Source: Nitrospirota bacterium (lineage in GTDB: Bacteria > JACPQY01). Taken from it: a stretch of DNA of 34,015 bases. Shown here one piece after another: positions 1-17,050 of the stretch (its first letter is position 1; every line of letters starts with the position of its first letter). Made by a program: the position numbers and the translations under genes. The notes beneath the pieces were generated by a model. That model searched no databases. It was not told the DNA's origin and was given only the letters and a program-made list of their open reading frames with translations. The stretch is from assembly GCA_016180645.1 (NCBI GenBank), contig JACPAV010000036.1, positions 1 through 34,015 on the forward strand. Direction: 5' to 3'.

Positions 1-3000
1 GTTATTCGTCACGGCTACGTTCGGCGAAGGCGTGCCGTTGTAGTTGGCGTCGGTGCTGGTGGAACCTGAGAACACGATGGAGTAGGCGATGTTGCCATCC
101 TGAACCGCGTCATCCACGCCGGTGACCGTGACGGTCTGCGGACTGTTCCAGTTGAGATTCGTGAAGATGAGCGAGGCCGGGCCGACCGTGCCCTCGGTCG
201 TGTCGTTTGAACTGTAGTTGACCGTGACGTCCGCCGTGGGTGAGGAAGTCAGGGACACGGTAAAGGTGGCCGTCCCGCCCGCTTCGGTCGTGTTCCCGCT
301 GATTGTGCTCACGTTGTAGCCCGGCGTATCGTCGTCCGTGTTCGTCACGGAAACATCGACGGGATCGAGACCGTTGTAACTTGTGTCCGTGCTCGTCGCC
401 GCCCCCGTCGTGATCGTGTAGGCGATGTTCCCGTCCGCCGCGACGTCATCCACGCCGGTGACAGTCACCGTCTGAGGTGTGTTCCAGTCGGCGCTCGTGA
501 AGGTCAGGGAGACCGGGGAGACCGTGCCTTCGGTCGTATCCGTGCTGGAGAGGCCGATCGAGACGTTGGCCGTGGGTGGCGTGTTCAGGACCACCGTGAA
601 GGTCGCCGTGCCGCCCAGTTCGGTCGTGTTCCCGCTGATTGCGCCGACCGTGATTCCGGATGGGGCGATGGAGAAGTTTGCGTTCGAATCGTCAGCCGAA
701 CTGTTGCCGTAGGCGTCCGTGGCCGTGAGCCTGACGCGCACGGTGCTCGAGCTGATCGCGGGCACCGTCCACGTGTAGCTCCCATCGTTCGTTTCCCCGC
801 TCGCAATCGAGTTCAGGTAGCTGCCTCCGCTGTCCGTCGAATAGTCGAGGGCGAGGGTGAAGGCGCTCGCGTCGGTCAAGTCCGCGTTGTTCCACGTGAT
901 CGACCTACTCTGCCCTTGGGTCCACAGTTCGGCGCCATTGGGGGCGATCAGAGTGGAGATGAGAATCGATGGGGCGGCGATATCATTATTCAGAGCTGTG
1001 GGGGAGGACTGGTTCCCGACCGCGTCGGTGGCGGTGACATATAAGGAAGGGTTGGTATTGTCGCCGATGGCCGTGGCCCCGAAGGAGCCATCGGCCAGTG
1101 ATGTGACGGTCGTGATGAGTGATGTGAGAAGACCATCGGAGTAGATTTTGACGGTGGAATTGGCTTCGACGGCTCCGGCTGCTCCACCGACGGTATCATT
1201 CGTACCCGGTGTATTCTGGGTGACCGTCAGTTGCGCAGGGGCCGGCGCGGGAGGCGGAGTCGAGTCCACCGTCCACGTGTACGAGGCGGGCGACGGATCC
1301 GCGTTGCCCGCGGGGTCATTGGCCCGGACGGAGAAACTGCGAGGACCATCGGCGAGGCTACTGTACGCCTTGGGTGAGGCGCAGGTGCTGTAGGCGCCGG
1401 AATCGAGCTTGCATTCGAAAGTTGCGGCCGAATCGGGACTGTTGAAGGTGAACGACGCCGAGGTCTGATTGGTCAGGGATGAAGGCTGACCGCTGATGGA
1501 CGTTTCAGGGGCCGTCGTATCGAGCGTGACGGTTGCCGTCAGGCTTGAGGTGGCGTTGCCCAGGGAGTCGCGGAACCGGACGTAGACGGTGCGCGTTCCG
1601 TCGGCGCCGGAAGACAAGGTCCAAGGCTTGGAAGCGGAATAGGGCTCATAGGGTGAAAAGGACGTATTGTCGTTTGAGAACGCCATCTCGGGCGCGTCCG
1701 TCGCCGACAAGGTCAGCGTGACCGCCGTGGAGTTCACCGCCGCCGCCCCGGAATTGATCTTTACCGACCCGCCCGTCGGCGCGCTCGTCTTGACCGTCCA
1801 CGTGTACCCGGCGGGCGTCGGATCCACGTTGCCTGCGGCATCGGCGCCGCGGACAGTGAACGAATGAGGACCATCGGATAGGGGTCCGGAGATCGAGTGA
1901 GGAGAGGCGCAGGAGGAGGCCGGAGCAGAGTCGAGAGCGCATTGGAAAATGGCGGACGTATCCGGGGAGGTGAAAGTGAACGTCGCACTCGTCTGATTGC
2001 TGAGAGCTGATGGCTGAGAGCTGATCGCTGTATCGGGCGGCGCGGTGTCCACTGTCCACGTGAACGAAGCGGGAGTCGAGTCGATGTTTCCTGCTGCGTC
2101 CTTCGCCCGGACGTTGAAGGTGTTCGACCCTTCGACGGCGCTCAGGGTGAGCGGGGCGGTGCAGGCGGCGGCGGAAGCCGAATTCAAAGAACAGGCAAAG
2201 GAGCACCCCTCACCCCCGCCCTCTCCCCCAAGGGGCGAGGGAGAATTCTTATCGGAGCAGGAGAAAGAAAAGGTACCGGTGCCCTTGTTGCTCAGAACTG
2301 ATGGCTGAACGGTGATGGCTGTTTCGGGCGGGGTTGTGTCGACCGTCCACGTGAACAGGGCGGGAGTGAGATCCTTGTTGCCCGCCTTGTCGATGGCGGA
2401 GACGGAGAAGGTGTTCGACCCTTCGACGGCGCTCAGGGTGAGCGGGGAGGCGCAGGGCGACGGGGCGCCGGAGTTGAGGGAGCACGTGAAGGTTGATTCC
2501 GGCTCAGAACTGGTAAACTCAAAGGTCGCCGACGCCTGGTTGCTGAGAGCCGGCGGCTGAGAGCTGATCGCTGTTTCGGGCGGAGCGGAATCCTTCAGCG
2601 CCAGCTTGAACGGCACGGACAGCGGCGTGGGGTCCGTATTGCCCAGCGCGTCCGCCGCCTTCACCAGCAGGACGTGATCGCCATCGTCGGCCGCAGGAAC
2701 ATAGGACGCCGGGCAAACCCTGAAGGCTCCCCCGTCCAGCGCGCACTTGAACAGGCAGGCCGCCTTGTCGCATTTGAACACGAAGACAGAATCGGGCTTT
2801 GTCACCGTGCACGAGGTAGGGGCGGCGCCTGAACCGGTTTCCGCTCGACGTTTCGCCCCCAAGGGTGGCGCGCAGGGAGTGGAGATCAGCGTGGTGTCCG
2901 GTGGGTTCAGGTCCACTGCCTTCAGTTCGATCTTTACGTCCGCCGGCGCGGCGACGCCCGCTGCCTTGAAGTCGTCCTTCACTTTCTGATCGAGTTGAAC

Positions 3001-3981
3001 GCTCAGCGTCTCGAAAGCCACCTGCACTTGTTCATTGGTGAGCTTCTTGTTGTCCCCATTGGAGGCGGACGCAACCGCCTGCTGGAGAATGGCGGCCACC
3101 CCTCCGGGCTGGCCAGGCGATGCCGAACCCAGCGCCACCGCCACCGCCACCTCGGTCAAGGTGGACACACCGTCACCGTTCAGGTCGGGCAATTCCACTT
3201 CGTTCGTGTTGATCGTCGTCGGCTTGATGTCCAGGGTCAGAACGGGGGCGCCCGCCTTGCCGCCGGATGCCGTTGCATCGGCCTGCTGGACTTTCACCTC
3301 GACCGTGGTGGTGACACGAACATACTCCACATCCTGCCGCTGTCTCGACCGAACGCGCGTGCTGATCGCGTTCTGGCCGTCTTGCGCCGATTTCTTGGGA
3401 AGATCGAACGAGAGTTGGAAGACGAAAGCGGTCTGGCCGTCGTCCTCCACGGGCGGTTGGCCGCTTGCCTGCTTTCGCGCGGCAGCACCTCTCACGCCCC
3501 CTCTCACGCCTCCCCGAACCCCACCGCGGACGCCTGAAGCCTCGGCCCCTCTCACGCCCCCCCGCACGCCGCCTTGCTCCGATCCGCGGACCCCACCCCT
3601 GATGCCGCCCCGGATCCCGTCGGCCACAAGCTGATCGTTCACGTACACGTCGGCCACCACATCTTTGGAGTCCGCCGCCTGAATCCCGTTCAGCATCGCC
3701 GCCACCTCGGGGGAGAGCGGAATGTCCATGTCCATCGGTACCACGTCTTTTTTCGCCTCCGGCAGTTCGATTTTGCGCATGCAGGCGGGAAGGAAGGTGA
3801 GCAGTGAGCAGCAAGTGGTGAGGAGCAGGGCGAGAGTCGAGAACCGAGAACCGTGAACCGTGAACCGCGAGGAGTAGGGCGAGAGGCGCGAGGCGGGAGT
3901 CGTGAGCCGGGGAGAAACAAAAGAAGAAAAAGCAAAAGGAACGCGCGAGACTTCGCGCAGACTCAGCCCTGCCAACGACAT
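1..3981 (-). CDS. Giant surface lipoprotein A (3' end runs off the window, >1327 aa): shared N-terminal GVRG-repeat domain, multiple bacterial Ig-like repeats, Calx-beta-like repeats
   Basis: Absent from the ORF track because the frame has no stop in the window. Manual translation from ATG at 3981 gives a hydrophobic stretch plus LPAC lipobox, IPLSPEVAAMLNGI, (GVRG)n, LPDLNGDGVSTLTE, several Ig repeats (ATFxCSLD...C.SP...TF.V.A.D.AGN.D.TP...TWTVD) and, at 1-660, two TTExGGTATFTVxL...WNxPQTVTVTGVDD Calx-beta-like units. A promoter sits 6 nt upstream. Confidence 0.85.
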   Translation of the reverse strand, partial: MSLAGLSLREVSRVPFAFSSFVSPRLTTPASRLSPYSSRFTVHGSRFSTLALLLTTCCSLLTFLPACMRKIELPEAKKDVVPMDMDIPLSPEVAAMLNGIQAADSKDVVADVYVNDQLVADGIRGGIRGGVRGSEQGGVRGGVRGAEASGVRGGVRGGVRGGVRGAAARKQASGQPPVEDDGQTAFVFQLSFDLPKKSAQDGQNAISTRVRSRQRQDVEYVRVTTTVEVKVQQADATASGGKAGAPVLTLDIKPTTINTNEVELPDLNGDGVSTLTEVAVAVALGSASPGQPGGVAAILQQAVASASNGDNKKLTNEQVQVAFETLSVQLDQKVKDDFKAAGVAAPADVKIELKAVDLNPPDTTLISTPCAPPLGAKRRAETGSGAAPTSCTVTKPDSVFVFKCDKAACLFKCALDGGAFRVCPASYVPAADDGDHVLLVKAADALGNTDPTPLSVPFKLALKDSAPPETAISSQPPALSNQASATFEFTSSEPESTFTCSLNSGAPSPCASPLTLSAVEGSNTFSVSAIDKAGNKDLTPALFTWTVDTTPPETAITVQPSVLSNKGTGTFSFSCSDKNSPSPLGGEGGGEGCSFACSLNSASAAACTAPLTLSAVEGSNTFNVRAKDAAGNIDSTPASFTWTVDTAPPDTAISSQPSALSNQTSATFTFTSPDTSAIFQCALDSAPASSCASPHSISGPLSDGPHSFTVRGADAAGNVDPTPAGYTWTVKTSAPTGGSVKINSGAAAVNSTAVTLTLSATDAPEMAFSNDNTSFSPYEPYSASKPWTLSSGADGTRTVYVRFRDSLGNATSSLTATVTLDTTAPETSISGQPSSLTNQTSASFTFNSPDSAATFECKLDSGAYSTCASPKAYSSLADGPRSFSVRANDPAGNADPSPASYTWTVDSTPPPAPAPAQLTVTQNTPGTNDTVGGAAGAVEANSTVKIYSDGLLTSLITTVTSLADGSFGATAIGDNTNPSLYVTATDAVGNQSSPTALNNDIAAPSILISTLIAPNGAELWTQGQSRSITWNNADLTDASAFTLALDYSTDSGGSYLNSIASGETNDGSYTWTVPAISSSTVRVRLTATDAYGNSSADDSNANFSIAPSGITVGAISGNTTELGGTATFTVVLNTPPTANVSIGLSSTDTTEGTVSPVSLTFTSADWNTPQTVTVTGVDDVAADGNIAYTITTGAATSTDTSYNGLDPVDVSVTNTDDDTPGYNVSTISGNTTEAGGTATFTVSLTSSPTADVTVNYSSNDTTEGTVGPASLIFTNLNWNSPQTVTVTGVDDAVQDGNIAYSIVFSGSTSTDANYNGTPSPNVAVTNN
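1993..2030. repeat. In-frame 7-bp repeat array (CTGAnnG x5); related arrays at 2291-2321 and 2536-2573
   Basis: ctgattg ctgagag ctgatgg ctgagag ctgatcg ctg; encodes TAISSQPSALSNQ on the minus strand. Confidence 0.75.
2128..2154. repeat. REP-like CCCTTCGAC-N4-CTCAGGGTGA element in frame; copies at 2419-2445 and 15356-15380, related motif at 6996-7023 (opposite orientation)
   Basis: cccttcgacggcgctcagggtgagcgg occurs twice in gene A; gene C has cccttcgacggtgctcagggtgaca; gene B has ccgctcgtcctgagcctgtcgaaggacg. Resembles, from memory, the widespread CCTGAGCnnGTCGAAGG intergenic repeat. Confidence 0.65.
2206..2243. repeat. REP-like CCCTCACCC...CCCTCTCCC...GGGnGAGGG hairpin element inserted in frame
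   Basis: cccctcacccccgccctctcccccaaggggcgagggag; encodes SPSPLGGEGGGEG between two Cys of an Ig loop that is only 4-8 aa in sister domains. Confidence 0.75.
3797..3915. repeat. Degenerate 7-bp array (17 in-phase units) encoding the signal region of lipoprotein A
   Basis: gtgagca gtgagca gcaagtg gtgagga gcagggc gagagtc gagaacc gagaacc gtgaacc gtgaacc gcgagga gtagggc gagaggc gcgaggc gggagtc gtgagcc ggggaga. Confidence 0.75.
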
Positions 3982-3987
3982 GCAACG

Positions 3988-4016
3988 TTTTTAGCAATCA
4001 CGCAATGTGATGTCAA
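3988..4016 (-). promoter_or_regulatory. sigma70-type leaderless promoter for lipoprotein A
   Basis: Minus strand TTGACA-N17-TAAAAA-N6-ATG(3981), with TG at the extended -10 position; the spacer contains an ATCAC-N5-GTGAT palindrome. Confidence 0.65.
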
Positions 4017-4042
4017 GTGGTTTCTAAATATGTTTCTAATAG

Positions 4043-4064
4043 AAATGTGATGTAGATCACAATC
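4043..4064. promoter_or_regulatory. CRP/FNR-family operator (TGTGA-N6-TCACA)
   Basis: AAATGTGATGTAGATCACAATC, 19/22 match to the E. coli CRP consensus; centred about -72.5 from the inferred start at 3981. Confidence 0.7.
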
Positions 4065-4329
4065 GGTTTTTTCCACGTATGTGCATGGACTTGGGATGTC
4101 CACATTCGGGCACCCGGCATGCGATGAAAAGTCATAAGCTGAAGCAGAGCATGAAGATTCGAGCCGGGTCCCGGACATTGACTTTGTGTCACTTCTCCGG
4201 CTCGGCGTTTCCGAGAAGCCTCCATCCTGCGCTACAAGTCCTACACGTCGGGAGTGTCGGGTTTTCTGCCCAAGGTGGTCATCGTCGGCGCCGGACATGG
4301 AGACCATGACTTACGTCAGGCGGCCTAAT

Positions 4330-4351
4330 AATTGTGACGTAAATCACAATT
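4330..4351. promoter_or_regulatory. Second TGTGA-N6-TCACA palindrome within a cluster of overlapping inverted repeats (4309-4362)
   Basis: ATTGTGA-CGTAAA-TCACAAT has perfect 7-bp arms; it overlaps TTACGTCA...TGACGTAA and TCACAA-N7-TTGTGA. Confidence 0.55.
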
Positions 4352-4444
4352 CAAATTTGTGAAGTTACTACGAGCACTTACGATGACAATGACCGGTGTC
4401 CACCAACATTGGGGGATTCCTGTGAGGAGCGCCTTGGCATGTGT

Positions 4445-5041
4445 CTATCGTTTCCGAACACGGGCATAGTCAAACCCCGCCGCGCGAATGGCTTTCTTGT
4501 AGGCTCCGAACCACTTGCGTGCCGCGTTGTAGAGGGCACTGTTCGATCGGCTGACCGCGTTGTCGTGGAGCGGAAGACCCCGCGCTTTGCATGCCCGCAG
4601 TGCTTCAACAACCTTTGAACGCGACCAAACGGGAGCCTTGCAAATCTTGTCGTAGTCGATTCCGGCCGCGCGGATGGCGGCCTTGTACGAGCCAAACCGG
4701 CCGGAAGCCGCGGCGTACAGACGACCCCCCTCAACTGTTGCGGTGAGCGCTCTCATGTTCAATGGTTGCCGCTCGCGCCATCGCTTGCGCAACTCTTCGG
4801 CAACCCGCTCCCTGGGCCAGATGGTCCGCCGTTCGGCGTCCTGGCGCCGGAGGGCTTCGGCCACGACGTGCTGCACTTCATACTCCTCCTTGTACTCTTG
4901 CGGGTCGACTTTGTGCTTGAAGTAGAGATGAGGGCTGAGATTGCGGTATCGACGTCGGCACATCAGGCACGTGACGAATTCCTCGGGCGTACGAGGCCGG
5001 GGATTGGGCAGGCCGGCATTCGAACTTCGGCGATGTTTCAC
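4445..5041 (-). CDS. Putative DNA-binding protein: Ros/MucR-like zinc finger plus two helical W...LY.AA...FG.Y..AIRAAG.DY repeats
   Basis: VTCLMC..YRNL..HL..KH...EYKEEY resembles the MucR finger; two internal ~64-aa repeats; GGAG upstream of the GTG start; very basic. Confidence 0.7.
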   Translation of the reverse strand: MKHRRSSNAGLPNPRPRTPEEFVTCLMCRRRYRNLSPHLYFKHKVDPQEYKEEYEVQHVVAEALRRQDAERRTIWPRERVAEELRKRWRERQPLNMRALTATVEGGRLYAAASGRFGSYKAAIRAAGIDYDKICKAPVWSRSKVVEALRACKARGLPLHDNAVSRSNSALYNAARKWFGAYKKAIRAAGFDYARVRKR

Positions 5042-5045
5042 GGGA

Positions 5046-5272: not shown

Positions 5273-5292
5273 CCGGTGACCCCCGTTCGAGG

Positions 5293-5555: not shown

Positions 5556-8500
5556 ATGCTTGTTCGGCGGACGCGGGACGTTCTCCTCGCGTTCGTCGTG
5601 GCCCTGTCCTCGTCCGTGCTGATCGGTTGTTCCGCGTGCGACGGCAAGAAGGGCGACAGGTCGGTCGAGCTTGAGATCGGCCTGCCGCTCACACCTGAGC
5701 AGGCCGCGGCGTTGGAGGGCATCCGGGCCGGCGTGCGGGGCATCAGCCGGGTGGACGATCTGTCGCGTGTGGATGAGCTTTCGCGTGTGGACGAACTGAG
5801 CCGGGTTGATGAGATCAGCCGGGTGGACGAGATCTCCCGTGTGGACGAGGCTCTCCGAGGGGCTGCGGCCAACCTCCTCATCGACGACCAAGCCGTGGCG
5901 GAGGGCCGGCGCGGAGAAATCGTCTCCGGCGTGCGCACCGGCGTCCGTCTGGGCCGACGCGCCGCTCCGGGCCGTAAAGTCGTGAATGGGGAAGCACGGG
6001 AGGGACGCGCTCCGTTGCGTCCGCCCGACCGTCAGGGCCACGATGGAGCGTGGCTCTTCAGGGGTCACGATCTTGCGATCTCACGCAAGCAAGCGCCGGA
6101 AGCTCCCTCCTTCTCGTTTCATATCCTCGTCTCGATTTCGGAGAAGTTCCTCCACGCCGGCGAGAGGAGGCTTCGCCTTCAGGTCTTCCCTCCCGAGGAG
6201 CCGGAACTGATTCTGATCGACGTCCAGATGCCGCTCTCGGTGGAGGAGGAGAAGGGCAGGCCCGTCATCCCGGAGCAGGAGATCCCCGCCGAGCTTATTC
6301 AACTGCCCGACGGTGACGAGGACGGGGTATCCACGCTGGTCGAGACCATCACGGCCGGACCGGATTTCGCGCGAGACCCCGGCAAGAAACCCTCGGTTGA
6401 ACTGACACGAGGCATGCTCGTCCTGCTCGGCAAGAATCTGGGGCAAACCCTCCAGGCCGAACAGGGCATCACCGTGGAGGTTTCCATCGATCCCCAGGCC
6501 ATCACGCTCGATCCGCCGGAGACGGCGGGAGCCTACGTTCCGCCCGAACCGGGGACTCCCGCCGCTCAGCTTCCCCCGGGCGTGACGATTGTCGGCATCC
6601 CCACCACTTTCACCTTCTCCTGCTCCGGTACGGCCGGGACGGCCGCGTGCAAGTACGCGTGCTCCATCGACGGCGGCCCGTATTTCGGATGCGCTTCGCC
6701 TTTCACGTGGAAGTTCGACACGCCGGGAGAGCATCGGATCCAGGTCAAATCCGCTGACAACCTCGGCAATACGGACACCTCCCCCGTCGAGTTGATCGTC
6801 AATGTCCTCACCCCGGAGGTCGCCGCTGATCCCGAAGCCGTGAAACAGTACGACCTCCCGCCCAACACGATCATCTTCCAAGAGCCGCCGGCCGTAAGCA
6901 GTGAACTTTCAGCCACGTTCACCTTCACGTCTTCCGAGGTCAACACCACGTTCGAGTGCTCGCTCGATGGCGCTCCGTGGGCGGAGTGCTCAAGTCCGCT
7001 CGTCCTGAGCCTGTCGAAGGACGGCTCGCACACTTTCCGTGTCCGTGCCATCGACTCCGCGGGGCAAGCCGACCCCACACCCGCCACATACACCTGGACC
7101 ATCGACACCACCGCACTCGAAACGACCATCACCAGCGGGCCAACCGCCACCACCGGATTTACCTCGGCAACTTTCGAGTTTTCCTCTACAAGCCCTGGCG
7201 CCACCTTCGAGTGCTCCCTCGACGGAACAGGCTTTGCCCCGTGCACTTCCCCCCACTTGATCACTGGACCACTTTCTTCGGGCACCCACACGTTCAGGGT
7301 TCGCGCAAAGGCTGTTTCAGGAATCGTCGATCCCACACCCGCCACGTACACCTGGACGGTCAACACCACTCTCCTCGACACGACGCTCGCAGGGGCGGGC
7401 TTGCCCGCCCTCCTCACCACCCAGACGACGGCCACGTTCGAGTTCACCGCATCCAATCCCGCGGCCACGTTTGAATGCGAACTGGACGGGGGCGGGTTTT
7501 CGGCCTGTTCATCACCCAAAGCCTATTCCGGGCTCACGTCCGGTTCCCATACGTTCAAAGTGCGAGCGAAAGATACCTCCGGCAACCTGGACTCCACGCC
7601 CGCTTCCTACACATGGACCGTGGACGTGACACCTCCGACTTTTGCCGGACTTGCGACCGCCACGGCCGTCTCAACGACCCAGATCGACCTCGCTTGGACG
7701 GCGGCGACTGACAACGTGAGCGCCTCAAACAAGATCATCTATGAGATTTGCCAATCGACGACCTCCGGCACCTGCGCCACAACCTTCACCGCCACGTACA
7801 CCACCACTGCCGGCGCCATTTCCTATTCCGCTCAGTCCTTAGTCCTCAGCACTCAGTACTTCTTTATGGCCCGCGCCAAAGACGAACTCGGAAACCGCGA
7901 CACCAACACCACCGAAAACTCCGCCGCCACCCTCGGTGGCCCGCTACCTCCCGGCGGGAATGTCCAGGCCGTCGCCACCCATCTCGGCGATCACACCTGT
8001 TCTCTCATCTCGGACGGGACGGTCAAGTGCTGGGGGAACAACCTTTATGGTCAGCTTGGGGACGGAACAACCACCAATCGCCCAACGCCCGCCGGCGTTC
8101 CTTCACTGCCGAATGCTATCGCCATAGCTGGAGGGAACACTCACACCTGCGCGCTCATAGTGGGCGGGACCGTCAGGTGCTGGGGAGAAAACTCTTACGG
8201 TAAGCTGGGGGACGGAACGACCACCAACAAGTGGACGCCTGTTCCAGTGGCGTCTCTTTCCAACGCGGTCGGGATAGCGGGAGGGGGCATTCACGCCTGC
8301 GCACTCTTGGCGGACGGGACGGTCAAGTGCTGGGGAAGCAATAACTATGGAAACCTCGGGGACGGAACAACAGTAGACAAGTGGACCCCTGTCCCGGTGG
8401 CGTCCCTATCCAACGCCATCGGAATGGCGGGAGGGTACTATCACACCTGCGCACTCTTGGCGGACGGGACGGTCAAGTGCTGGGGATCGAACCAGTACGG

Positions 8501-10151
8501 TCAGGCGGGAGATGGAACAAGCCCCCCACCGCCAAGCAATGAAAAGAAACTGACACCGGTGGTCGTGAGCGCTCTCTCGAACTCCGTGACCATTGGCGTG
8601 GGAGGCTATCACACCTGCGCACTCTTGGCGGACGGGACGGTCAAGTGCTGGGGACGCAATAACTACGGGCAGATCGGGGACGGAACGACCACCAACAGGT
8701 TGGCTCCTGTCGCCGTGTCCGCGTTGAGTGCGGCTGTCTCGGTGGTGGGCGCGGGTGCGCACACTTGCGCCCTCTTTTCGAACGGGACGGTTCAATGTTG
8801 GGGATACAATCTTGAAGGTGAACTTGGGGATGGGACGACCGCCAACAAGTGGACGCCTGTCCCGGTGGCGTCTCTTTCTAACGCCATCGGGACGGCAGGA
8901 GGGACCGCTCACACCTGCGCGCTCATAGCGGACGGGACGGCAAGATGCTGGGGGTGGAATCCTTCCGGTCAGCTTGGGGATGGGACGACGGTGGACAAAT
9001 CGACGCCCGTGGCCGTCACGAATCTCGGCGGCCCGCTCGGCGTGAAACTCCCCCGTCTCCACGAGTCCACCGCCTCCGGCGCGCCGTCTCGCCCCTTCCG
9101 CGAAGGGCTTACGAACCACCTCGGCTATCACACCTGTTCCCTTCTCTCCGACGGCACAGTCAAATGCTGGGGACGCAATGGCTATGGCCAGCTTGGGGAC
9201 GGGACGCTGGTGCAAAAGACGACCCCGGTTGCCGTTTCCACGCTCTCCGGCGCCGTCGCCGTCACGGGAGGTCTCTATCACACCTGCGCTCTGGCCTCCA
9301 ATGGAACGGTCAAGTGCTGGGGACGCAACCTTTACGGCCAACTGGGCGACGGGACGACCACGGATTCGCCCACTCCTGTGGCCGTGATCTCCTTGTCGAA
9401 CGGCGTCGCCGTCACGGGAGGTTACTATCACACCTGCGCACTGGCCTCCAATGGAACGGTCAAATGCTGGGGATACAACTATAGCGGCCAACTGGGCGAC
9501 GGGACGTTCGCGCAGAGGACGACCCCGGTTACCGTTTCCACGCTCTCCGGCGCCGTCGCCGTCACGGGAGGCTTCGATCACACCTGCGCGCTGGCCTCCG
9601 ATGGAACGGTCAAATGCTGGGGATCCAACGATTCCGGCCAACTGGGCGACGGGACGACCACGGATAAGACGACCCCGGTTGTCGTCTCCACGCTCTCCGG
9701 CGCCGTCGCCGTCACGGGAGGTCTCGATAACACCTGCACGCTGGCCTCCGATGGAACGGTCAAATGCTGGGGATGGAACGCTAACGGCCAACTGGGCGAC
9801 GGGACGACCACGGATAAGACGACCCCGGTTGCCGTTTCCACGCTCTCCGGCGCCGTCGCCGTCTCGGGAGGTGACGAGCACACCTGCGCGCTGGCCTCCA
9901 ATGGAACCGTGAAATGCTGGGGATGGAACGCTAACGGCCGGCTGGGCGACGGGACGACCACGCAGAGGACGACCCCGGTTGCCGTTTCCACGCTCTCCGG
10001 CGCCGTCGCCGTCTCGGGAGGGAACGAGCACACCTGCGCGCTGGCCTCCGATGGAACGGTCAAATGCTGGGGACGCAACACTTACGGCCAACTCGGCGAC
10101 GGGACGACGATCACCCGCCTCACCCCCGTCGCCGTGACGAACCTGCCGTGA
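5556..10151 (+). CDS. Giant surface lipoprotein B (1531 aa): shared N-terminal domain, 4 Ig-like repeats, FN3 domain, 14 RCC1/BLIP-II repeats (two 7-bladed propellers)
   Basis: LIGC lipobox; LPLTPEQAAALEGIRAG; LPDGDEDGVSTLVE; Ig repeats; FN3 (IDLAWTAATD...QYFFMARAKD); 14x HTCAL.SDGTVKCWG.N..GQLGDGT. Confidence 0.92.
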   Translation: MLVRRTRDVLLAFVVALSSSVLIGCSACDGKKGDRSVELEIGLPLTPEQAAALEGIRAGVRGISRVDDLSRVDELSRVDELSRVDEISRVDEISRVDEALRGAAANLLIDDQAVAEGRRGEIVSGVRTGVRLGRRAAPGRKVVNGEAREGRAPLRPPDRQGHDGAWLFRGHDLAISRKQAPEAPSFSFHILVSISEKFLHAGERRLRLQVFPPEEPELILIDVQMPLSVEEEKGRPVIPEQEIPAELIQLPDGDEDGVSTLVETITAGPDFARDPGKKPSVELTRGMLVLLGKNLGQTLQAEQGITVEVSIDPQAITLDPPETAGAYVPPEPGTPAAQLPPGVTIVGIPTTFTFSCSGTAGTAACKYACSIDGGPYFGCASPFTWKFDTPGEHRIQVKSADNLGNTDTSPVELIVNVLTPEVAADPEAVKQYDLPPNTIIFQEPPAVSSELSATFTFTSSEVNTTFECSLDGAPWAECSSPLVLSLSKDGSHTFRVRAIDSAGQADPTPATYTWTIDTTALETTITSGPTATTGFTSATFEFSSTSPGATFECSLDGTGFAPCTSPHLITGPLSSGTHTFRVRAKAVSGIVDPTPATYTWTVNTTLLDTTLAGAGLPALLTTQTTATFEFTASNPAATFECELDGGGFSACSSPKAYSGLTSGSHTFKVRAKDTSGNLDSTPASYTWTVDVTPPTFAGLATATAVSTTQIDLAWTAATDNVSASNKIIYEICQSTTSGTCATTFTATYTTTAGAISYSAQSLVLSTQYFFMARAKDELGNRDTNTTENSAATLGGPLPPGGNVQAVATHLGDHTCSLISDGTVKCWGNNLYGQLGDGTTTNRPTPAGVPSLPNAIAIAGGNTHTCALIVGGTVRCWGENSYGKLGDGTTTNKWTPVPVASLSNAVGIAGGGIHACALLADGTVKCWGSNNYGNLGDGTTVDKWTPVPVASLSNAIGMAGGYYHTCALLADGTVKCWGSNQYGQAGDGTSPPPPSNEKKLTPVVVSALSNSVTIGVGGYHTCALLADGTVKCWGRNNYGQIGDGTTTNRLAPVAVSALSAAVSVVGAGAHTCALFSNGTVQCWGYNLEGELGDGTTANKWTPVPVASLSNAIGTAGGTAHTCALIADGTARCWGWNPSGQLGDGTTVDKSTPVAVTNLGGPLGVKLPRLHESTASGAPSRPFREGLTNHLGYHTCSLLSDGTVKCWGRNGYGQLGDGTLVQKTTPVAVSTLSGAVAVTGGLYHTCALASNGTVKCWGRNLYGQLGDGTTTDSPTPVAVISLSNGVAVTGGYYHTCALASNGTVKCWGYNYSGQLGDGTFAQRTTPVTVSTLSGAVAVTGGFDHTCALASDGTVKCWGSNDSGQLGDGTTTDKTTPVVVSTLSGAVAVTGGLDNTCTLASDGTVKCWGWNANGQLGDGTTTDKTTPVAVSTLSGAVAVSGGDEHTCALASNGTVKCWGWNANGRLGDGTTTQRTTPVAVSTLSGAVAVSGGNEHTCALASDGTVKCWGRNTYGQLGDGTTITRLTPVAVTNLP
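5745..5852 (+). repeat. Hexapeptide tandem repeat SRVD(D/E)(L/I/A) x6 (18-bp unit)
   Basis: Six units with mixed synonymous codons (Ser agc/tcg/tcc; Arg cgg/cgt). Confidence 0.9.
7389..7411 (+). repeat. GTAG-type REP-like hairpin in frame (AGAGLPAL); inverted twin at 15498-15520
   Basis: G(C/T)AGGGGCGGGC-TT-GCCCGCCCT; 24 nt identical in inverted orientation at 7391-7414 and 15495-15518. Confidence 0.7.
7981..9030 (+). repeat. Seven ~150-bp RCC1 coding repeats (propeller 1)
   Basis: Seven HTC/HAC...CWG.N..G units; blade 4 has a SPPPPSNEK insertion. Confidence 0.85.
9121..10148 (+). repeat. Seven near-identical 150-bp RCC1 coding repeats (propeller 2)
   Basis: Exact 150-nt period: units start at 9121, 9271, 9421, 9571, 9721, 9871 and 10021. 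Confidence 0.95.
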
Positions 10152-10259: not shown

Positions 10260-10399
10260 GGACGCATGGGAATGCGTCCCTACCACAATTCGGCATCCGT
10301 AGGGAGCGATTCCCATCGCTCCGATTGTGCGGAGACATAGGAATGTCTCCCTACGAGAAAACTACGAAGAAAATCGCCCGATGTAAAATCGGGCGCTAC
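10260..10399. repeat. Cluster of four GTAG-type REP hairpins between convergent genes
   Basis: GGACGCAT-GGGA-ATGCGTCCCTAC (10260-10283); GTAGGGAGCGAT-TCCC-ATCGCTCC (10299-10322); GGAGACAT-AGGA-ATGTCTCCCTAC (10331-10354); CGCCCGAT-GTAAA-ATCGGGCGCTAC (10375-10399). Confidence 0.85.
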
Positions 10400-11917: not shown

Positions 11918-12004
11918 ATGCCTGATGCCCTTGCGTGCTGCTCTGAGCGTACAGGCCCGCGGGGATCCTTCACGTGTCAACGCGTGGAGGACCCTGGGGG
12001 GGTC

Positions 12005-15000
12005 TCACTGCCCGCCGGTGGTGGTCTTGAGGACGGTGCCGCTCTCGCCGACGGCGTAGCCGGTGCTTCCGTTTCCGGGAAATTGAACGCCACGAAGAAG
12101 TACGGTTGTCCCGGACGTCTGGCTTATCCAGTTCCCCCCGCCGTCCGTCGTCTTAAGAATCGTCCCACTAGCTCCCACAACGTAGCCGGTGTTCGCATTG
12201 ATGAAATAGACGCCGTAAATCGCAGACGTCGTACCGGACGTTTGCGACGACCACGCGGTGCCGCCATCGGATGTCTTCAGGATCGTGCCGCTGTCCCCGA
12301 CCACGTATCCCGTGGTCGCATCCACCGGGAAATGTATCGCCCGGAGCAGATTTGTCGTGCCCGAGGTCTGGGTCTGCCACACATTGCCGCTGTTCGTGGT
12401 CCGGATGATGGTCCCGCTTACCCCCACGGCAAAAGCCGATGTTGACGTCGCAAACTGGATGGCGTTGAGTTGATTACTGGTTCCCGAGCTTTTGCTGACC
12501 CAGCTTGCCCCGCCGTTTGTCGTCTTATAGAGCGCGCCGCTCGAACCCACGAACCAGCCGGCGGTCGTATCAAGGAAATGAACACCATAGAGGGTGTTGC
12601 TGATCGCCGGGGACTGGTCGGTCCAGCCCGTTCCTCCATCGGTCGTCTTGAGAACCTTGCCGGAAGCGCCCACGGCCCAACCTGTTGTGGTGTCAACGGG
12701 AAAGTGCATATCGTAAAGATCGGTCGTAATACCTGACGATTGCGCAGCCCATGTACCACCGCTATCCGTAGTCTTGATGATTGTCCCAGAGGCGCCCACG
12801 GCATATCCGGTTGCGCTCACGGGGAAGTGAACTGCATAGAGAATCTTTCCGGTTCCGGCTGTCTGATCCGCCCAGCTTGTGCCGCCGTTGGTGGTTTTCA
12901 GCGCCGTCCCGTCTACACCCACAATGTATCCCGTTGTCGCGTCTACAGGAAAATTCGCACTCCACAAATCGGATGTTGTGCCGGACGTCTGGGCAGCCCA
13001 AGTGGCCCCGCTGTCCGTCGTCTTGTAGATCTTTCCACCGGTCCCTGCGATGTACCCGGTTGTTGTGCCTCCCACGAATCGAACGGTATAGAAATCGGTC
13101 GTTGTGTTCGGCGAATCCTGAGCGGACCAATTCGTCCCGCCGTCCGTCGTTTTGAGGACCTTCGAGGGATTTGTGCATGCCCAGCCGCAGGAGGTAGACA
13201 AAGTCACCGCGTACCCCGTGGTTGCGTCCACGGGGAAGTGGACGGAGTAAATTGGCATTGTGGTCCCGGAGGTTTGGGCCGTCCAGGTGGCGCCGCTGTT
13301 CGTGGTCTTGAGAATCGTGCCGCTGCCACCAATGGCGTACCCCGTGGTTGCGTCCACGGGGAAATGCACGCCTTCCAGGAAGTTCGTTGTCCCGGAGGTT
13401 TGGGCCGTCCAGGTGGCGCCGCTGTTCGTGGTCTTGAGAATCGTGCCGCTGCTTCCGACCGCGTAGCCCGTCGTCGCGTCCACGGGGAAATGGACGCCGT
13501 ACAGGTTGTTTGTTACCCCGGAGGTTTGGGCCGTCCAGATGGCGCCGCTGTCCGTTGTCTTGAGAATCGTGCCGGTGTTGCCGACCGCGTAGCCCGTCGT
13601 CGCGTCCACGGGGAAATGGACAGCGTAGAGACGATTGATGGTACCGGATGCTCCGCAGGTAACCGCCCAGGTTGCGCCCCCATCCGTCGTCTTGAGGATC
13701 ATTCCCCGGTCGCCGACGCTGTAGCCGGTCAGGTTGTTCACAAAATGCGTGCCGTATAGCGTCATTCCCGTAGGCTTCCGTTGCACTTCGGCCCAGGAGC
13801 CGGCCGGGCACGTGGGAGGGGCAACGGGGGCCGCGCTGACCTGCACCGTGTTGGTTTCCACATTCCCGGCTTCGTCGACTGCCCGAACGACAAAGTAGTA
13901 GGTCGTGCCCGTTGTGAGGCTGTCCACCCCGTAACTCACGGCACCGGCCGCCGTGGTGTAGGTGGTCGTAAAGGTCGTCTGGCACGTGCCGGTGGTGGTG
14001 GATTGGCAGATTCGATAAATTATGGCTGCGCTTGCGCTCACGGCGTCGGTGGCGGCCGTCCAGGTGAGGTTGATCCGAGTGGCGGAGGCGGAGGCCGCGG
14101 ACGACGCGCCGGAGAATGTGGGAGGCGTTGTGTCTACAACTACGGTCACGCCGTTGGAGGCGGTCCATGCGGCGATCTGGCCAAGCGTATCGACGGCGCG
14201 GACGCAGTTGTAGTACGTTGTGCTGGCCACCAAGCTAAGACTCGTGGTTGTCTTCGATGTGACCAGTGCTACGTCTGTAGTGGCGACGATATTCCCCGCG
14301 CAAGCGGTTGTCGTGCTCAAATTGTAATCATACCGCTGGAGCCCGCTTCCCGCGTCGCTGAATCCGCTCCAATTGACGTTCATGGTGGTGGTGGAAGACT
14401 GCGAGGAGACATCGGCTCCCGTACCATCATTAACGGTTCCGGTAGCCGGGGCCGCGGTGTCGCAGGTTCTCGTGACCGCTACGCCTCCGCCGGTATTGCC
14501 CGCGGCATCGGTGGCGGCCATGTTGAGCGTCAAGGTTTCGCCGTTCGCGCACGCGATCGCCGTTTTGGAGCATGTACCCGAGGAAAACGCGGCCGCCGCC
14601 CACTCCGTGTCGCACGCGCCGTCCGTTGATTTGCAGTATTGGCAACTCGTGATGCTCGATCCCGAATCTGAAAAAGCCGCCGAGAGATCGAAAGAGCCGT
14701 CCACGTGGGTGGCGGTGGCCGTGTTGGCCGGGGTGACGGTTCCCGCCACCGGCGCGCCGATATCGATCGTCCACGCGGTCGAGGCGGGGGAGGCGTCCGT
14801 GTTGCCCGCGGCGTCCTTCGACCTCACCTGGAAAGTGCGGGAGCCCGCCATGAGACCGGAGTACACCTTGGGAGACGCGCACGCCGAATAGCCGCCCGAG
14901 TCGATTTCGCATTCGAACGTTGCGCCGGAATCCGGGGCGCTGAAACTGAACGACGCGGATGTGGTGTTCGTGGGGTTGGGCGGCTGGGCGGTGATCGACG

Positions 15001-17050
15001 TGTCCGGGGCGGTCAGATCCACCGTCCAAGTATGGGAGGCAGGCGTAGCGTCTGCGTTCCCGGCAGCATCGACGGCGCGCGTACTGAAGCTGTGAGACCC
15101 TTCTGCCAGCGAAGTGGGTGCTGTGAAGGGCGATGAGCAGGCGGCGTACGCGGCCGAGTCGAGCTTGCACTCGAATCTAGCTGTGGATTCCGGCGACGTG
15201 AAGGTGAACGAGGCCGTGGTGGAGTTGGTCGGGTCGGTCGGCTTGCTGGTGATGGAGGTATCCGGCGGGGTCAGATCGACGGTCCACGTGAAGGTCACGG
15301 GGGTTGGATCCTTGTTCCCGGTCTTGTCCACGGCGGCAACGGAGAAGGTGTGAGACCCTTCGACGGTGCTCAGGGTGACAGGGGACACGCAGGAGGAGAA
15401 GGCGGCAGAGTCGAGGGAGCACTGGAAGGAAACGGGCGCGGACGGATTGGAATCCGTCCCTACGAATTGGAACGTGGCGGAGGTTTGGTTGGTCAGGAGG
15501 GCGGGCAAGCCCGCCCCTACGAGGGATGTATCCGGAGGCGTCTTGTCGCAATCGGCCGGGCAGGAGGCCTCGGTCTCGCCCGCCTCGCACACCTTGTTGC
15601 CGCAGACAATGGCCGGAAGTACCGTGAATTTGATCTCCGCGGGCGTCAGGTCCTTGTTGCCGATGGCGTCAGCGGCCTGCACACGAAGCGTGTGGTCCCC
15701 AGGGCTCAGGGTTCGGGGATCAGGGGTCAGGGGAGAAGCGCAGGGGGCAAAAGAGGCGCCGTCCAGGGAGCAGCGGAAGGCGCAGAAATTTTCATTGCAC
15801 GTCAGGGTTAGGGTGATTTGTTCTCCGCTCTTGATTGACGCGCCACTCGCCACTGGCAACGCGCCACTCACCGCGCTCAGCGCGGTGTCGGGCGGCGTCA
15901 AATCGACCGGCTTCACCTCTACGAGTGTTTTCACCCCTTGATCGGCGAGCTCCTTTTGGAGATTCTGAGCGAAGGACGCGGAGACGGCCTGGGCTTGTTC
16001 CTCCGTAGGCTTCTGGGCCGGGTCCTGGGCAACCTGAAGGGCCTGTTGTATCCCTGCTTCCTTCGCGATCACGGCCAACTCCACCAATGTGGAGACTCCA
16101 TCGCCATCGACGTCGGGGAGAACCACGTCGTTCAAGGCGATAGGCGTTTCTTCGATTTCGATCTCGAAAGCAGGGGTCAGGGCTCCGGGATCAGGGGTCA
16201 GTCCGGAGTCCGGCCCGCCTTGCTGATCCCCGACCCCTGAACCCTGAACCCTTAACTTCACTGTGGTTTGGACTTCGATGAGGGTTGTGGTCGCGTCCGT
16301 CGCGGGCCGAACGCGGGTGGTCAGCGTGTACAAGCCATCGGATGCCAGGGCGATCGGCAGATAGAAAGTGATCTCCATGCCCAGCGCGAGCGCATCCTGC
16401 GCTTGCCGTTTCACGCACCCTCCGCAGCCATCCCTGGCGCTCCGGGTACGGTCAGCCGTCCTGGCACCATGATTCGTGAATCGTGAATCGTCAGGAGCGG
16501 CCGTACCTGCCGCATTGTCTTGCGCGTCACTCATCACGGACCACTCGCCACTTCTTCGGGGTGGGGCCCCCGGGAGTCCCTTTCCGCCGCCGATGGCCGC
16601 GCGGACGCCCGTCCGAACGCCGGCTCGAATCCCCGTGCGAACGCCGGCGCGCACGCCTTCGGCAACTACTTGATCGTTCCACAAGATGTCTGCCGCTAAT
16701 CCGTCTTCGACCACCGCGCGAACGCCATCCTGCTGACCGGCGCGTACCCCTTGCTCAGTCCCGGCGCGCACGCCCTGTTCTGTCTCGGCACGAATGCCGT
16801 CTGTTGCAATCGTCCGAACCCCTGCCCGCACGCCCGCACGCACGCCTTCAAGGAGCGCCGCCTGCTCCGGCGTAAGCGGAATGCCGACGATTACTTCGAT
16901 CGAATCGTCCGGAATGTGATGAGAAGATTTTTTCTTCTTGTTGGAGCAGGACGAAACAAGCAGAATCGTGAGTGAGGCGAGCAGCAACGCCCATGCGAAC
17001 CCCGAGACCCTCCACGGCCGTACGATCTGGCCCTCCATTGTAGACCTCAT
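12005..17050 (-). CDS. Giant surface lipoprotein C (~1681 aa): shared N-terminal domain, Ig-like repeats, Cys-rich repeat, FN3 domains, 14 YCF48/BNR-type blades (two 7-bladed propellers)
   Basis: VSSC lipobox; IPLTPEQAALLEGVRAG; LPDVDGDGVSTLVE; CGNKVCEAGETEASCPADC; 14x L..VHFPVDATTGYAVG..GTILKTTDSGATW; ATG at 17050 overlaps the upstream stop (ATGA). Confidence 0.92.
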   Translation of the reverse strand: MRSTMEGQIVRPWRVSGFAWALLLASLTILLVSSCSNKKKKSSHHIPDDSIEVIVGIPLTPEQAALLEGVRAGVRAGVRTIATDGIRAETEQGVRAGTEQGVRAGQQDGVRAVVEDGLAADILWNDQVVAEGVRAGVRTGIRAGVRTGVRAAIGGGKGLPGAPPRRSGEWSVMSDAQDNAAGTAAPDDSRFTNHGARTADRTRSARDGCGGCVKRQAQDALALGMEITFYLPIALASDGLYTLTTRVRPATDATTTLIEVQTTVKLRVQGSGVGDQQGGPDSGLTPDPGALTPAFEIEIEETPIALNDVVLPDVDGDGVSTLVELAVIAKEAGIQQALQVAQDPAQKPTEEQAQAVSASFAQNLQKELADQGVKTLVEVKPVDLTPPDTALSAVSGALPVASGASIKSGEQITLTLTCNENFCAFRCSLDGASFAPCASPLTPDPRTLSPGDHTLRVQAADAIGNKDLTPAEIKFTVLPAIVCGNKVCEAGETEASCPADCDKTPPDTSLVGAGLPALLTNQTSATFQFVGTDSNPSAPVSFQCSLDSAAFSSCVSPVTLSTVEGSHTFSVAAVDKTGNKDPTPVTFTWTVDLTPPDTSITSKPTDPTNSTTASFTFTSPESTARFECKLDSAAYAACSSPFTAPTSLAEGSHSFSTRAVDAAGNADATPASHTWTVDLTAPDTSITAQPPNPTNTTSASFSFSAPDSGATFECEIDSGGYSACASPKVYSGLMAGSRTFQVRSKDAAGNTDASPASTAWTIDIGAPVAGTVTPANTATATHVDGSFDLSAAFSDSGSSITSCQYCKSTDGACDTEWAAAAFSSGTCSKTAIACANGETLTLNMAATDAAGNTGGGVAVTRTCDTAAPATGTVNDGTGADVSSQSSTTTMNVNWSGFSDAGSGLQRYDYNLSTTTACAGNIVATTDVALVTSKTTTSLSLVASTTYYNCVRAVDTLGQIAAWTASNGVTVVVDTTPPTFSGASSAASASATRINLTWTAATDAVSASAAIIYRICQSTTTGTCQTTFTTTYTTAAGAVSYGVDSLTTGTTYYFVVRAVDEAGNVETNTVQVSAAPVAPPTCPAGSWAEVQRKPTGMTLYGTHFVNNLTGYSVGDRGMILKTTDGGATWAVTCGASGTINRLYAVHFPVDATTGYAVGNTGTILKTTDSGAIWTAQTSGVTNNLYGVHFPVDATTGYAVGSSGTILKTTNSGATWTAQTSGTTNFLEGVHFPVDATTGYAIGGSGTILKTTNSGATWTAQTSGTTMPIYSVHFPVDATTGYAVTLSTSCGWACTNPSKVLKTTDGGTNWSAQDSPNTTTDFYTVRFVGGTTTGYIAGTGGKIYKTTDSGATWAAQTSGTTSDLWSANFPVDATTGYIVGVDGTALKTTNGGTSWADQTAGTGKILYAVHFPVSATGYAVGASGTIIKTTDSGGTWAAQSSGITTDLYDMHFPVDTTTGWAVGASGKVLKTTDGGTGWTDQSPAISNTLYGVHFLDTTAGWFVGSSGALYKTTNGGASWVSKSSGTSNQLNAIQFATSTSAFAVGVSGTIIRTTNSGNVWQTQTSGTTNLLRAIHFPVDATTGYVVGDSGTILKTSDGGTAWSSQTSGTTSAIYGVYFINANTGYVVGASGTILKTTDGGGNWISQTSGTTVLLRGVQFPGNGSTGYAVGESGTVLKTTTGGQ
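13205..13625 (-). repeat. Near-identical 126-bp (42-aa) propeller-blade repeats
   Basis: ggtttgggccgtccag recurs at 13271, 13397 and 13523. Confidence 0.85.
15440..15463 (-). repeat. GTAG-type REP hairpin in frame (VGTDSNPS)
   Basis: ggacggattggaatccgtccctac is 21/24 identical to the intergenic REP at 10260-10283, including one compensatory stem change. Confidence 0.8.
16171..16256. repeat. Two inverted 7-bp arrays (CAGGGGT-type / CTGAnCC-type) in frame; related arrays at 15700-15734 and 16467-16555
   Basis: caggggt cagggct ccgggat caggggt cag ... ctgatcc ccgaccc ctgaacc ctgaacc; encodes VQGSGVGDQ...LTPDPGALTP. Confidence 0.75.

Follow-up and report, generated by a model that had tools for sequence, protein, structure and literature searches.

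Why do three large genes of one bacterial contig carry, inside their immunoglobulin-like (Ig) domains, short palindromes resembling the repetitive extragenic palindromes (REPs) that lie between genes of the same contig? The stretch analysed here (the window) is 34,015 bases long and is one complete contig, C51, of a Nitrospirota genome, G000. An earlier note on this DNA had proposed that several intergenic repeat families are read in frame at recurrent sites of these Ig domains, and counting the families in the whole genome and mapping them onto a profile of the domain bears this out: repeats in the genes are identical at the DNA level to extragenic ones, they recur at the same few sites, paralogs have these sites empty, and the reading frames stay open. 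We put the probability at roughly 0.8 that genes for Ig-domain lipoproteins have been colonised in frame by dispersed repeats, which were tolerated and then spread by duplication.

G000 consists of 65 contigs (4,716,505 bases, 60.8% G+C) and is rated 97% complete. In a collection of 199,900 species its phylum comprises only G000 and G001, a member of another genus of the same family; G001 was also the sole same-family genome found in a search for relatives. Counts of intergenic and coding copies are approximate because they are based on our own rough gene calls (hexamer scores, starts set to the longest open reading frame; 3654 genes, 87% coding). The genes in question are the following.

1..3981, minus strand: gene A, 3' end off the contig; lipoprotein-like N-terminus, five IgX/Big_13-type domains and further Ig-like repeats.
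5556..10151, plus strand: gene B; lipoprotein-like N-terminus, four IgX domains, an fn3-like part and RCC1 beta-propeller repeats.
12005..17059, minus strand: gene C; lipoprotein-like N-terminus, four IgX domains, fn3 and BNR/YCF48-like repeats.

All three N-termini have a hydrophobic stretch closing on a cysteine (LPAC, LIGC and VSSC) and, read by the lipobox rule, look like lipoprotein signals. Each protein has four or five domains of about 85 residues of the Pfam Big_13 type (PF19077), for which A (68.4 bits, E = 8.4e-19) and C (46.9 bits) score above the cut-off of 27 and B (24.1 bits) below it. A profile made from the window domains, IgX, finds 138 domain rows in 46 proteins of G000; 22 of the 46 contain at least one repeat family in frame. 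The second domain of C (C-d2; other domains are named likewise) holds three of the four elements described below, i, ii and iii. Its AlphaFold2 (AF2) model has a mean predicted local distance difference test score (pLDDT) of 88.3 and is a beta-sandwich, the nearest solved folds being FN3-like modules of CbhA (3pe9, template-modelling score 0.71), SiiE BIg and PKD domains. The prediction points to an Ig fold as the bearer of the elements, with element ii at residues 7-14 (end of strand A and the next turn) and element i at the end of strand B and in the B-C loop.

Element iii, CCTGAGC-N2-3-GTCGAAGG, is present four times in the window.

2129..2146, minus strand: element iii with N3, read LSAVEG, after C-T-A-P of A-d3; the stretch common with intergenic copies is 2130-2154.
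2420..2437, minus strand: element iii with N3, read LSAVEG, after C-A-S-P of A-d2.
7004..7020, plus strand: element iii with N2, CGTCCT..AGGACG stem variant, read LSLSKD, after C-S-S-P of B-d2.
15357..15374, minus strand: element iii with N3, read LSTVEG, after C-V-S-P of C-d2; a short strand and turn in the AF2 model (block pLDDT 92-94).

Of the 41 copies in the genome, 16 are in Ig genes, 11 in genes of other kinds and 14 between genes; 14 of the 16 Ig-gene copies stand after C-x-S-P. The motif is translated in more than one frame: in the second domain, gene A has CCTGAGC-GCC-GTCGAAGG, giving L-S-A-V-E-G (codons GCC GTC GAA GGG), and its paralog on contig C22 has CCTGAGC-TT-GTCGAAGG, giving L-S-L-S-K-D (TTG TCG AAG GAT). 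Because GTCGAAGG is read in two frames and the peptides are absent from external homologues (see below), the repeats are shared at the DNA level and not at the peptide level. A left flank, CCGCTCAC or CCGCTCGT, is common to intergenic and Ig copies, and the compensatory stem variants CACCCT..AGGGTG and CGTCCT..AGGACG are both found between genes and in Ig genes. The Ig copies amount to about 25-28 bases of a longer intergenic element, without its right arm. The loop that bears them is one or two residues shorter than the sister loops; in B it has the same length as in the empty paralog.

2204..2245, minus strand: element iv, a CCCTCGCCCC..GGGGAGAGGG hairpin with a G-rich tail, CGGGGGTGAGGGG, read SPSPLGGEGGGEG, between two extra cysteines in the B-C loop of A-d3.

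The hairpin proper of element iv occupies 2219-2241 and the tail extends down to about 2204; the B-C segment is 27 residues long here, not 14 (+13). All four Ig copies of this CCCTC hairpin lie in the B-C loop, and the same architecture is seen in intergenic copies and in paralogs on C22, C38 and C10. The Ig copies, which retain the G-rich tail of the family (..GGGTGAGGGG), fall into two sub-families, each with an intergenic counterpart. Intergenic copies of both iii and iv have a larger hairpin architecture of their own and no Ig-domain flanks.

15440..15463, minus strand: element i, a GTAG hairpin with an 8-bp stem and loop TCCA, read VGTDSNPS, in the B-C loop of C-d2.
10260..10283, minus strand: REP of the element i sub-family, intergenic, between the convergent genes B and UbiA; fold z = -3.73.
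10299..10322, plus strand: REP of the element i sub-family, intergenic, stem GGAGCGAT.
10331..10354, minus strand: REP of the element i sub-family, intergenic, stem GGAGACAT.
10375..10399, minus strand: REP of another GTAG sub-family, intergenic, stem CGCCCGAT, loop TTTAC; six perfect copies in the genome.

Element i (GTAGGGACGGATTCCAATCCGTCC) and the intergenic REP at 10260-10283 (GTAGGGACGCATTCCCATGCGTCC, also minus strand) differ at 3 of 24 positions, and two of the three differences are a compensatory G-C/C-G swap in the stem. Its sub-family has four copies in the genome, all on the window contig, three of them intergenic and one coding. Folded as single-stranded DNA, element i reaches -8.5 kcal/mol (z = -2.78 against shuffles). 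The B-C segment that contains it has 18 residues, not 14 (+4).

15499..15520, minus strand: element ii, a GTAG-headed 22-mer, GTAGGGGCGGGCTTGCCCGCCC, with a 7-8-bp stem, read VGAGLPA(L), at the end of strand A of C-d2.
7389..7410, plus strand: element ii, GCAG-head variant, read AGAGLPA(L), in strand A of B-d4.

Element ii reads LVGAGLPALL in C and LAGAGLPALL in B at a place where sister domains have I(T/S)SxP, and strand A then has 22 residues vs 20. G000 contains seven exact copies and one variant, all in large genes (0 of 8 intergenic): six at the start of an Ig domain, one in a B-C loop and one in an N-terminal non-Ig region. The eight copies are 98.9% identical, with flanks at 41-53% (41% and 47% over 60 bases per side), and at about seven synonymous positions there is zero variation across seven copies. 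All eight share one reading frame, open over the whole 273 codons around them. In each of the two comparisons with paralogs (below), a short CCCGC likeness can be seen at the right junction. As single-stranded DNA the C copy folds at -9.1 kcal/mol (z = -2.66); for the B copy z = -1.41. By head and stem, elements i and ii belong to the GTAG-tagged REPs, imperfect palindromes of 20-40 bp that have GTAG at one end, the B copy of ii with GCAG in its place; iii and iv, which lack such a head, fall outside the class.

The same 22-mer was found in 119 stretches of public metagenome contigs, from which 84 sites in 80 loci were taken. At 83 of the 84 the VGAG frame is not open, none lies in an IgX domain, only four have at least 200 open codons in any frame, and flank G+C runs from 0.28 to 0.77; the 22-mer is absent from G001. 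Because these sites are mostly outside long open frames, the 22-mer is probably an ordinary extragenic REP in other organisms that in G000 is purely intragenic. The expectation that every motif would be repeated between genes thus fails for ii within G000 and holds for it in other DNA. A fold-back (quasi-palindrome) origin of ii from native Pro-Ala codons was considered and is ruled out because three unrelated contexts contain the whole 22-mer with both its arms. Repeat-bearing paralogs are most densely clustered on contig C10 (G000:C10:45371-65396 and 86757-92402), where five IgX-family genes, four of them consecutive, hold four of the seven exact copies together with several other elements.

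2005..2024, minus strand: run of TCAGCNN heptads in strand A of A-d4, translated as ISSQPSALS; similar runs at 2555-2567, 2298-2311 and 1482-1497.

These heptads were flagged by an unbiased 13-mer comparison with intergenic DNA and lie in strand A of window domains that are otherwise 'clean'. The 13-mer TCAGCTCTCAGCC has five intergenic occurrences (in heptad runs), none in other genes and seven in Ig genes; the 46 Ig proteins of G000 contain the peptide QPSA[LVI]S 10 times, the best 120 external proteins 0 times. Eight of nine mapped runs fall in strand A, and from these counts the TCAGCNN repeat is a possible fifth in-frame family.

The individual sightings from which the earlier note had started hold up in the sequence. 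Its 21/24 likeness between the hairpin at 15440-15463 and the REP at 10260-10283 and the compensatory change in the stem are both there; ii does take the place of the ITSxP segment at 7389 and at 15498 (the C copy lies at 15499-15520); the four GTCGAAGG-type motifs do sit in the loop after C-x-(S/A)P (at 2129, 2420, 7004 and 15357); and the hairpin it saw near 2206, here placed at 2219-2241, does expand a Cys-Cys loop (27 vs 14 residues).

How these elements relate to the repeats of the genome at large was seen from hairpin counts. GTAG stands directly before 396 of the 4884 perfect hairpins (stem of at least 8, loop 3-8) of G000; 307 of the 396 are intergenic, 15 straddle a gene end, 19 lie at most 90 bases from an end and 55 are deep in genes, mostly in open frames of 1300-2300 codons. 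A looser rule gives 651 GTAG hairpins, 478 of them between gene calls. The main forms, GTAG-GGGAGCATC-TTCA-GATGCTCCC and GTAG-GGGAGGGTC-TTCA-GACCCTCCC, have about 100 copies each, mostly arranged as inverted doublets. A pattern for the main class has 331 matches in G000 and 23 in G001 (reversed control 0); the main REP sequence, GTAGGGGAGCATCTTCAGATGCTCCC, is identical in both genera and about 14 times more abundant in G000. Per Mb there are 514 perfect GTAG hairpins in intergenic DNA, 113 in the 46 Ig genes and 12.8 in other genes. 13-mers with at least four intergenic occurrences cover 1.55% of the Ig genes vs 0.42% of other genes of at least 1.5 kb, and this unbiased screen recovers both element iii copies of gene A. 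Sense GTAG hairpins in Ig genes are distributed 21/15/0 over the codon phases, the phase that reads TAG being empty, as selection against broken genes would leave it. The extreme case is a gene on C65 with 18 GTAG hairpins within 1986 open codons; its arrays read as SRRGASLDAPS repeats in B-C loop inserts of about 40 to about 105 residues.

G000:C25:35020-35490 and C25:105731-106204: RAYT genes, NF047646, with flanking REP arrays.

A search for RAYT genes flanked by related REPs, which the earlier note had recommended, was successful. Among seven Y1-transposase matches in G000, these two (156 and 157 aa) score 100.5 and 88 bits against the RAYT equivalog NF047646 of NCBIfam (cut-off 80). On their flanks are GGGAGCATC/GGGAGGGTC/GGGCGGATC REPs and CGCAGGC REPs, families that are also found in frame in genes on other contigs, and the two transposases probably serve some of the GTAG REP sub-families. 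None of the five longer Y1-like proteins (240-369 aa; C48:52212-54576, C46:14126-15064, C36:71675-72397 and C52:22213-23226) is flanked by GTAG hairpins; the two that were scanned are extended at the C-terminus and, at 70.6 and 74.3 bits, fall just short of the RAYT cut-off.

Where in the domain do the repeats lie? The main insertion point is after profile position 30, in the B-C loop, where inserts are present in 33 of 146 rows and reach three or more residues in 28. In 25 domains the B-C segment has at least 20 residues and 22 of these have two extra cysteines around the insert; the cysteine-bracketed loop appears to be a preferred landing site. Repeat DNA is recognisable by eye in 14 of the 25 long segments, in the form of single GTAG hairpins, REP doublets or element iv (four segments). 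One doublet, read VAAPFTGASSDAGVKPAAT, is present in six B-C loops, and its arms are those of the family that flanks the second RAYT gene. Placed on the IgX profile, six GTAG hairpins fall in strand A, five in the B-C loop and the other 36 beyond the aligned parts, within the large inserts of C65 or in N-terminal regions outside Ig domains. The claim that the repeats occupy the same loops accordingly holds for iii, for iv and for some of the GTAG copies, and REPs also lie outside the Ig domains. An alignment of ten clean window domains sets each element against sister domains without it, and here the claim that the repeats replace a loop rather than lengthen it also divides: ii (22 vs 20 residues) and iii (loop slightly shorter or equal) conform, and i (+4), iv (+13) and the C65 arrays do not.

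External homologues show what the domain looks like without repeats. Gene C residues 380-780 were searched against 5.8 billion proteins and the best 120 (37-53% identity, 2162 domains) were used. Lengths vary little among them: of 1411 strand-A segments 1330 have 20 residues, 1908 of 2113 B-C segments have 13-14, and 1926 of 2125 stretches following the second cysteine have 15. The earlier note had reckoned with distant homologues that encode the same peptides; GAGLPAL, LS.VEG, LSLSKDG, GEGGGEG and RGASLDAP occur 0 times in these 2162 domains. Among the matches listed there is no close orthologue (best 53% identity), with one same-family genome only, and the polarity of insertion is for this reason taken from paralogs and distant homologues.

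The comparison of relatives proposed to find empty sites thus drew a blank for orthologues and succeeded with two pairs of paralogs. The paralog C22_1_4017 is 71% identical to gene A in protein and 72% in DNA. In strand A of d2 it has VGAGLPALL and A the canonical AISSQPPAL; in d3 it has a GTAG hairpin read VGAASTPPAL and A has AITVQPSVL; element iv is common to both. The paralog C23_698_5254 is 67% identical to B across the Ig region; at B's ii site it has TITNQPAAI, two residues shorter, and at the iii site PLTLSLLTQG, encoded by different DNA. In a comparison of 50 columns outside the element sites (94 near-complete of 146 rows, used in place of a maximum-likelihood tree), the most similar domain shared the label in 4 of 7 cases for the strand-A hairpin and in 3 of 11 for element iii. 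A homologue in G001 has VGAASSDPPS between two B-C loop cysteines and an element iii (PLTLSLSKGDG) after C-x-x-P, the latter copy resembling a G000 domain on contig C10. Some of the insertions are old, since they are also found in this homologue of the sister genus.

Taken together, these observations fit the following course best. GTAG REPs, CCTGAGC..GTCGAAGG, the CCCTCTCCCC hairpin with its G-rich tail and probably the TCAGCNN heptads would have entered Ig genes in frame, repeatedly, and copies would have survived only where the frame stayed open and the fold tolerated them. Three Ig sites would be tolerant: strand A at its end, the B-C loop, where two extra cysteines often enclose the repeat, and the short strand and turn after C-x-S-P; N-terminal non-Ig regions would retain copies as well. 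Both modes of change occur, plain insertion, up to large arrays, and short patches that swap native residues with little effect on length. Such patches would then be inherited through gene and domain duplication, and conversion of short tracts, with paralogs or dispersed copies as donors, probably moved them too. How the repeats entered, by transposition and later deletion or by patch replacement from a template, is our inference, as is their role as passengers that are not selected.

Several points weigh against tolerated colonisation. Genes A, B and C taken together do not have a clear excess of hairpins: with a stem of at least 7 there are 10 vs 7.05 +/- 2.11 in synonymous-codon shuffles, and 8 of 60 shuffles reach 10; with a stem of at least 8 there are 5 vs 1.65 (reached by 1 of 60). 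The codon-shuffled control suggested earlier yields only a weak excess. As single-stranded DNA, the Ig copies of iii and iv do not fold better than shuffled sequence (z = -1.6, -1.08 and -0.97), and their family membership rests on identity with intergenic copies. Because hairpin counts in the window and the folding of iii and iv are weak, the argument has to come from the other parts of the genome and from homologues, and there the polarity of insertion depends on paralogs and distant homologues, no close orthologue being at hand. For ii, which has no intergenic copy in G000, and for i, which has only three neighbouring ones, the sequence does not demonstrate an origin by transposition within the genome, and among the REP-flanked RAYT genes of G000 none is linked to either sub-family. 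As many as 36 of the 47 GTAG hairpins in Ig genes are outside the parts of the domains aligned by the hidden Markov model, and for a few close to an N-terminus the true start may be further downstream; given rough gene calls, many of the 81 hairpins in genes shorter than 1000 aa may be miscalls. Finally, at one site the replacement is conservative at the peptide level, because native loops of relatives resemble the element-encoded peptide there (the G001 loop SPFTVLLLTEGSHTF beside SPLTLSAVEGSNTF).

The alternative that survives best starts from the inference of the earlier note, repeat-templated diversification of surface proteins. Here the palindromes would be a standing donor library whose dispersed copies serve as templates for short-patch replacement, overwriting three exposed sites of the lipoproteins; the 22-mers would be recombination points, joints for domain shuffling between paralogs; surface variation would be selected; and no reverse transcriptase would be needed. 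The concentration of repeats in one exported-protein family, the presence of several families at the same sites, the near length-neutral replacement at two sites and the single reading frame of all eight ii copies would agree with this. So would the patchy presence of elements among the most similar domains (4/7 and 3/11) and the Ig copies of iii, whose fragment of about 25-28 nt fits patch copying better than transposition. Against it, at least one copy of element iii and one REP in a B-C loop are shared with a homologue of the sister genus and hence old and stable; the flanks of ii (41-53% identity) bear no sign of recent exchange; and the same repeats are found in non-Ig regions and in an unrelated giant protein, as simple tolerance predicts.

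Public samples speak to the same question. The window sequence is present in four public DNA runs of one groundwater study, with no RNA run listed among the public runs. Contigs from the four runs match it without differences (the runs, being from one study, may include the source sample), and they contain no variant without an element and no presence/absence or cassette variation, although contigs drop rare variants. A reverse transcriptase was sought as well: the 97%-complete G000 has no RVT_1 match at E <= 1e-5, in a search whose control was positive in 3 of 14 genomes. Since no reverse transcriptase was found, there is no machinery of the kind used by diversity-generating retroelements, and a mechanism of that type is ruled out. 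With no variation in the four runs, no reverse transcriptase and at least one old insertion, the diversification inference is not well supported as it was put, and we regard a donor library as unlikely compared with tolerated colonisation.

Much less probable still is that the palindromes are ordinary lineage-specific coding sequence, conserved as peptide or arisen by chance, whose likeness to intergenic DNA is coincidental or due to decayed gene fragments. The hairpin count of the window near that of synonymous shuffles, the weak folding of iii and iv, the coding-only distribution of ii in G000 and the similar peptide pattern in native loops of relatives would all suit this explanation. It is largely refuted by the one DNA motif (iii) that is read in two frames, by the roughly seven synonymous positions invariant across seven ii copies with flanks at 41-53%, by the 22-mer lying outside long open frames at 80 of 84 metagenome sites with flank G+C of 0.28 to 0.77, by intergenic iii and iv with larger hairpins of their own and no Ig flanks, and by peptides seen 0 times in 2162 external domains. 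Least probable of all is an assembly artefact, in which short repeats caused chimeric joins and the real genes lack the elements: the metagenome-assembled genome is in 65 contigs, several Ig genes are cut by contig ends and contigs of the public runs break or branch exactly at elements (including element iv of gene A), but frames stay open for 1300-2300 codons across elements, a single uninterrupted domain alignment takes in both flanks of each element, and separate contigs of the four runs, which may include the source, cross 14586-15518 and 6994-8325 with 0 differences.

Tolerated colonisation has partial counterparts in known systems. Rickettsia palindromic elements are palindromic repeats that likewise lie in frame and leave genes open, a likeness of behaviour and not of compared sequence; they are longer, occur in an obligate intracellular alphaproteobacterium and are scattered across many genes unrelated to one another, whereas G000 is a free-living groundwater bacterium from a lineage with two species-level genomes. 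The REPIN-RAYT systems of Bertels and Rainey (2011), in which REPINs reportedly form extragenic populations, resemble G000 in having inverted REP doublets and a RAYT gene flanked by REPs, but part of the REP population of G000 is translated, for example the doublet VAAPFTGASSDAGVKPAAT in six B-C loops. Diversity-generating retroelements act on Ig-like or C-type-lectin folds and share with the donor-library idea templated change at exposed sites of surface proteins; in G000, unlike in these systems, there is no RVT_1 match, no template/variable repeat pair and no adenine-specific pattern.

The closest precedent is the survey of intragenic GTAG- and CGTC-tagged REPs in several species by Di Nocera, De Gregorio and Rocco (2013; PMC3733652). 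It describes in-frame single REPs, dimers coding for 20-30 aa and clusters coding for 43-82 aa in a 'variety of unrelated proteins', many of them for DNA repair, argues against functional constraints and cites the Rickettsia palindromic elements (its references 13 and 14). G000 is alike in that GTAG palindromes are mostly extragenic, some lie in frame in open reading frames, and RAYT genes are flanked by the same REPs. It differs in that the hosts are one paralogous family of 46 genes and the sites are defined positions of one domain type, in having at least three further families that are not GTAG-tagged, and in that native sequence is often replaced and not added to. A term search of the supplement of PMC3733652 returned one protein with a cadherin domain, which has a single REP, and no entry for an Ig-like or surface protein. 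A full-text literature search of limited coverage found no paper on REPs concentrated in an Ig-like surface-protein family. In-frame intragenic REPs are thus already known; new are the multiple families, the fixed sites, the whole paralog family, the partial replacement and the sparsely sampled lineage.

Intragenic REPs have so far been seen as scattered accidents, and here at least four families share a few sites of one domain type. Beyond the published picture are one motif read in two frames, a REP sub-family that in G000 exists only inside genes, and the frequent replacement of native residues. The insertions form a natural map of the positions of a Big_13-type Ig fold that accept foreign sequence, and the family offers a system for asking whether REP/REPIN populations persist within tolerant coding sequence and whether repeat-templated patching feeds surface-protein evolution. 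For annotation they are a warning that VGAGLPAL, LSLSKDG or GEGGGEG in large exported proteins can derive from repeats. The donor-library reading, if true, would mean a surface-variation system made from selfish REP-type repeats in a candidate lineage of two species.

Other repeats were noticed in and around the family. Outside it, a 2317-aa non-IgX protein (G000:C47:1508-8458) contains complete copies of element iii in each orientation (HPEPVEG and FDKLRVSG..ELVEP), nine GTAG hairpins and the simple-repeat peptides LITHHSS and ERRTSNE, all in a single open frame. The N-terminal parts of A (about 3500-3700), B (9900-...) and C (16700-16800), and of L009, L016 and L100, contain G(V/I)RGG or SRVDE(L/I) runs; such runs are near the N-terminus of all family members, the sister genus included, and some N-termini also have RFTVHGSR-like stretches, resembling further simple DNA repeats in frame. 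In the BNR/YCF48-like repeats of C, FPVDATTGY is coded by a palindrome, CCCCGTGGACGCAACCACGGGG, with an 8-bp stem and no GTAG head (13214-13235, 13340-13361 and 13476-13497), which recurs because the protein repeat recurs. A perfect 8-bp hairpin at 15869-15887 (CACCGCGCTGAGCGCGGTG, read TALSAVS) lies in strand A of the degenerate first domain of C and is outside every family defined here. The first domain of A (2803-2889) has 13 more residues (PPLGAKRRAETGS) than the C22 paralog; shortly 3' of the DNA for this insert is ..GCCGCCCCTAC, which may be a decayed antisense GTAG element.

The rest of the window holds two further groups of interest. At 22944-29880 two tyrosine recombinase genes, a gene for a helix-turn-helix (HTH)-Peptidase_M78 (IrrE-like) protein and an FtsK/SpoIIIE gene lie together and may be an integrated mobile element. 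Divergent from gene C, at 17453-22648, is the gene for a 1731-aa regulator that combines a Ser/Thr kinase, AAA_16, TPR repeats, GAF, a sigma-54 activator and a Fis-type HTH.

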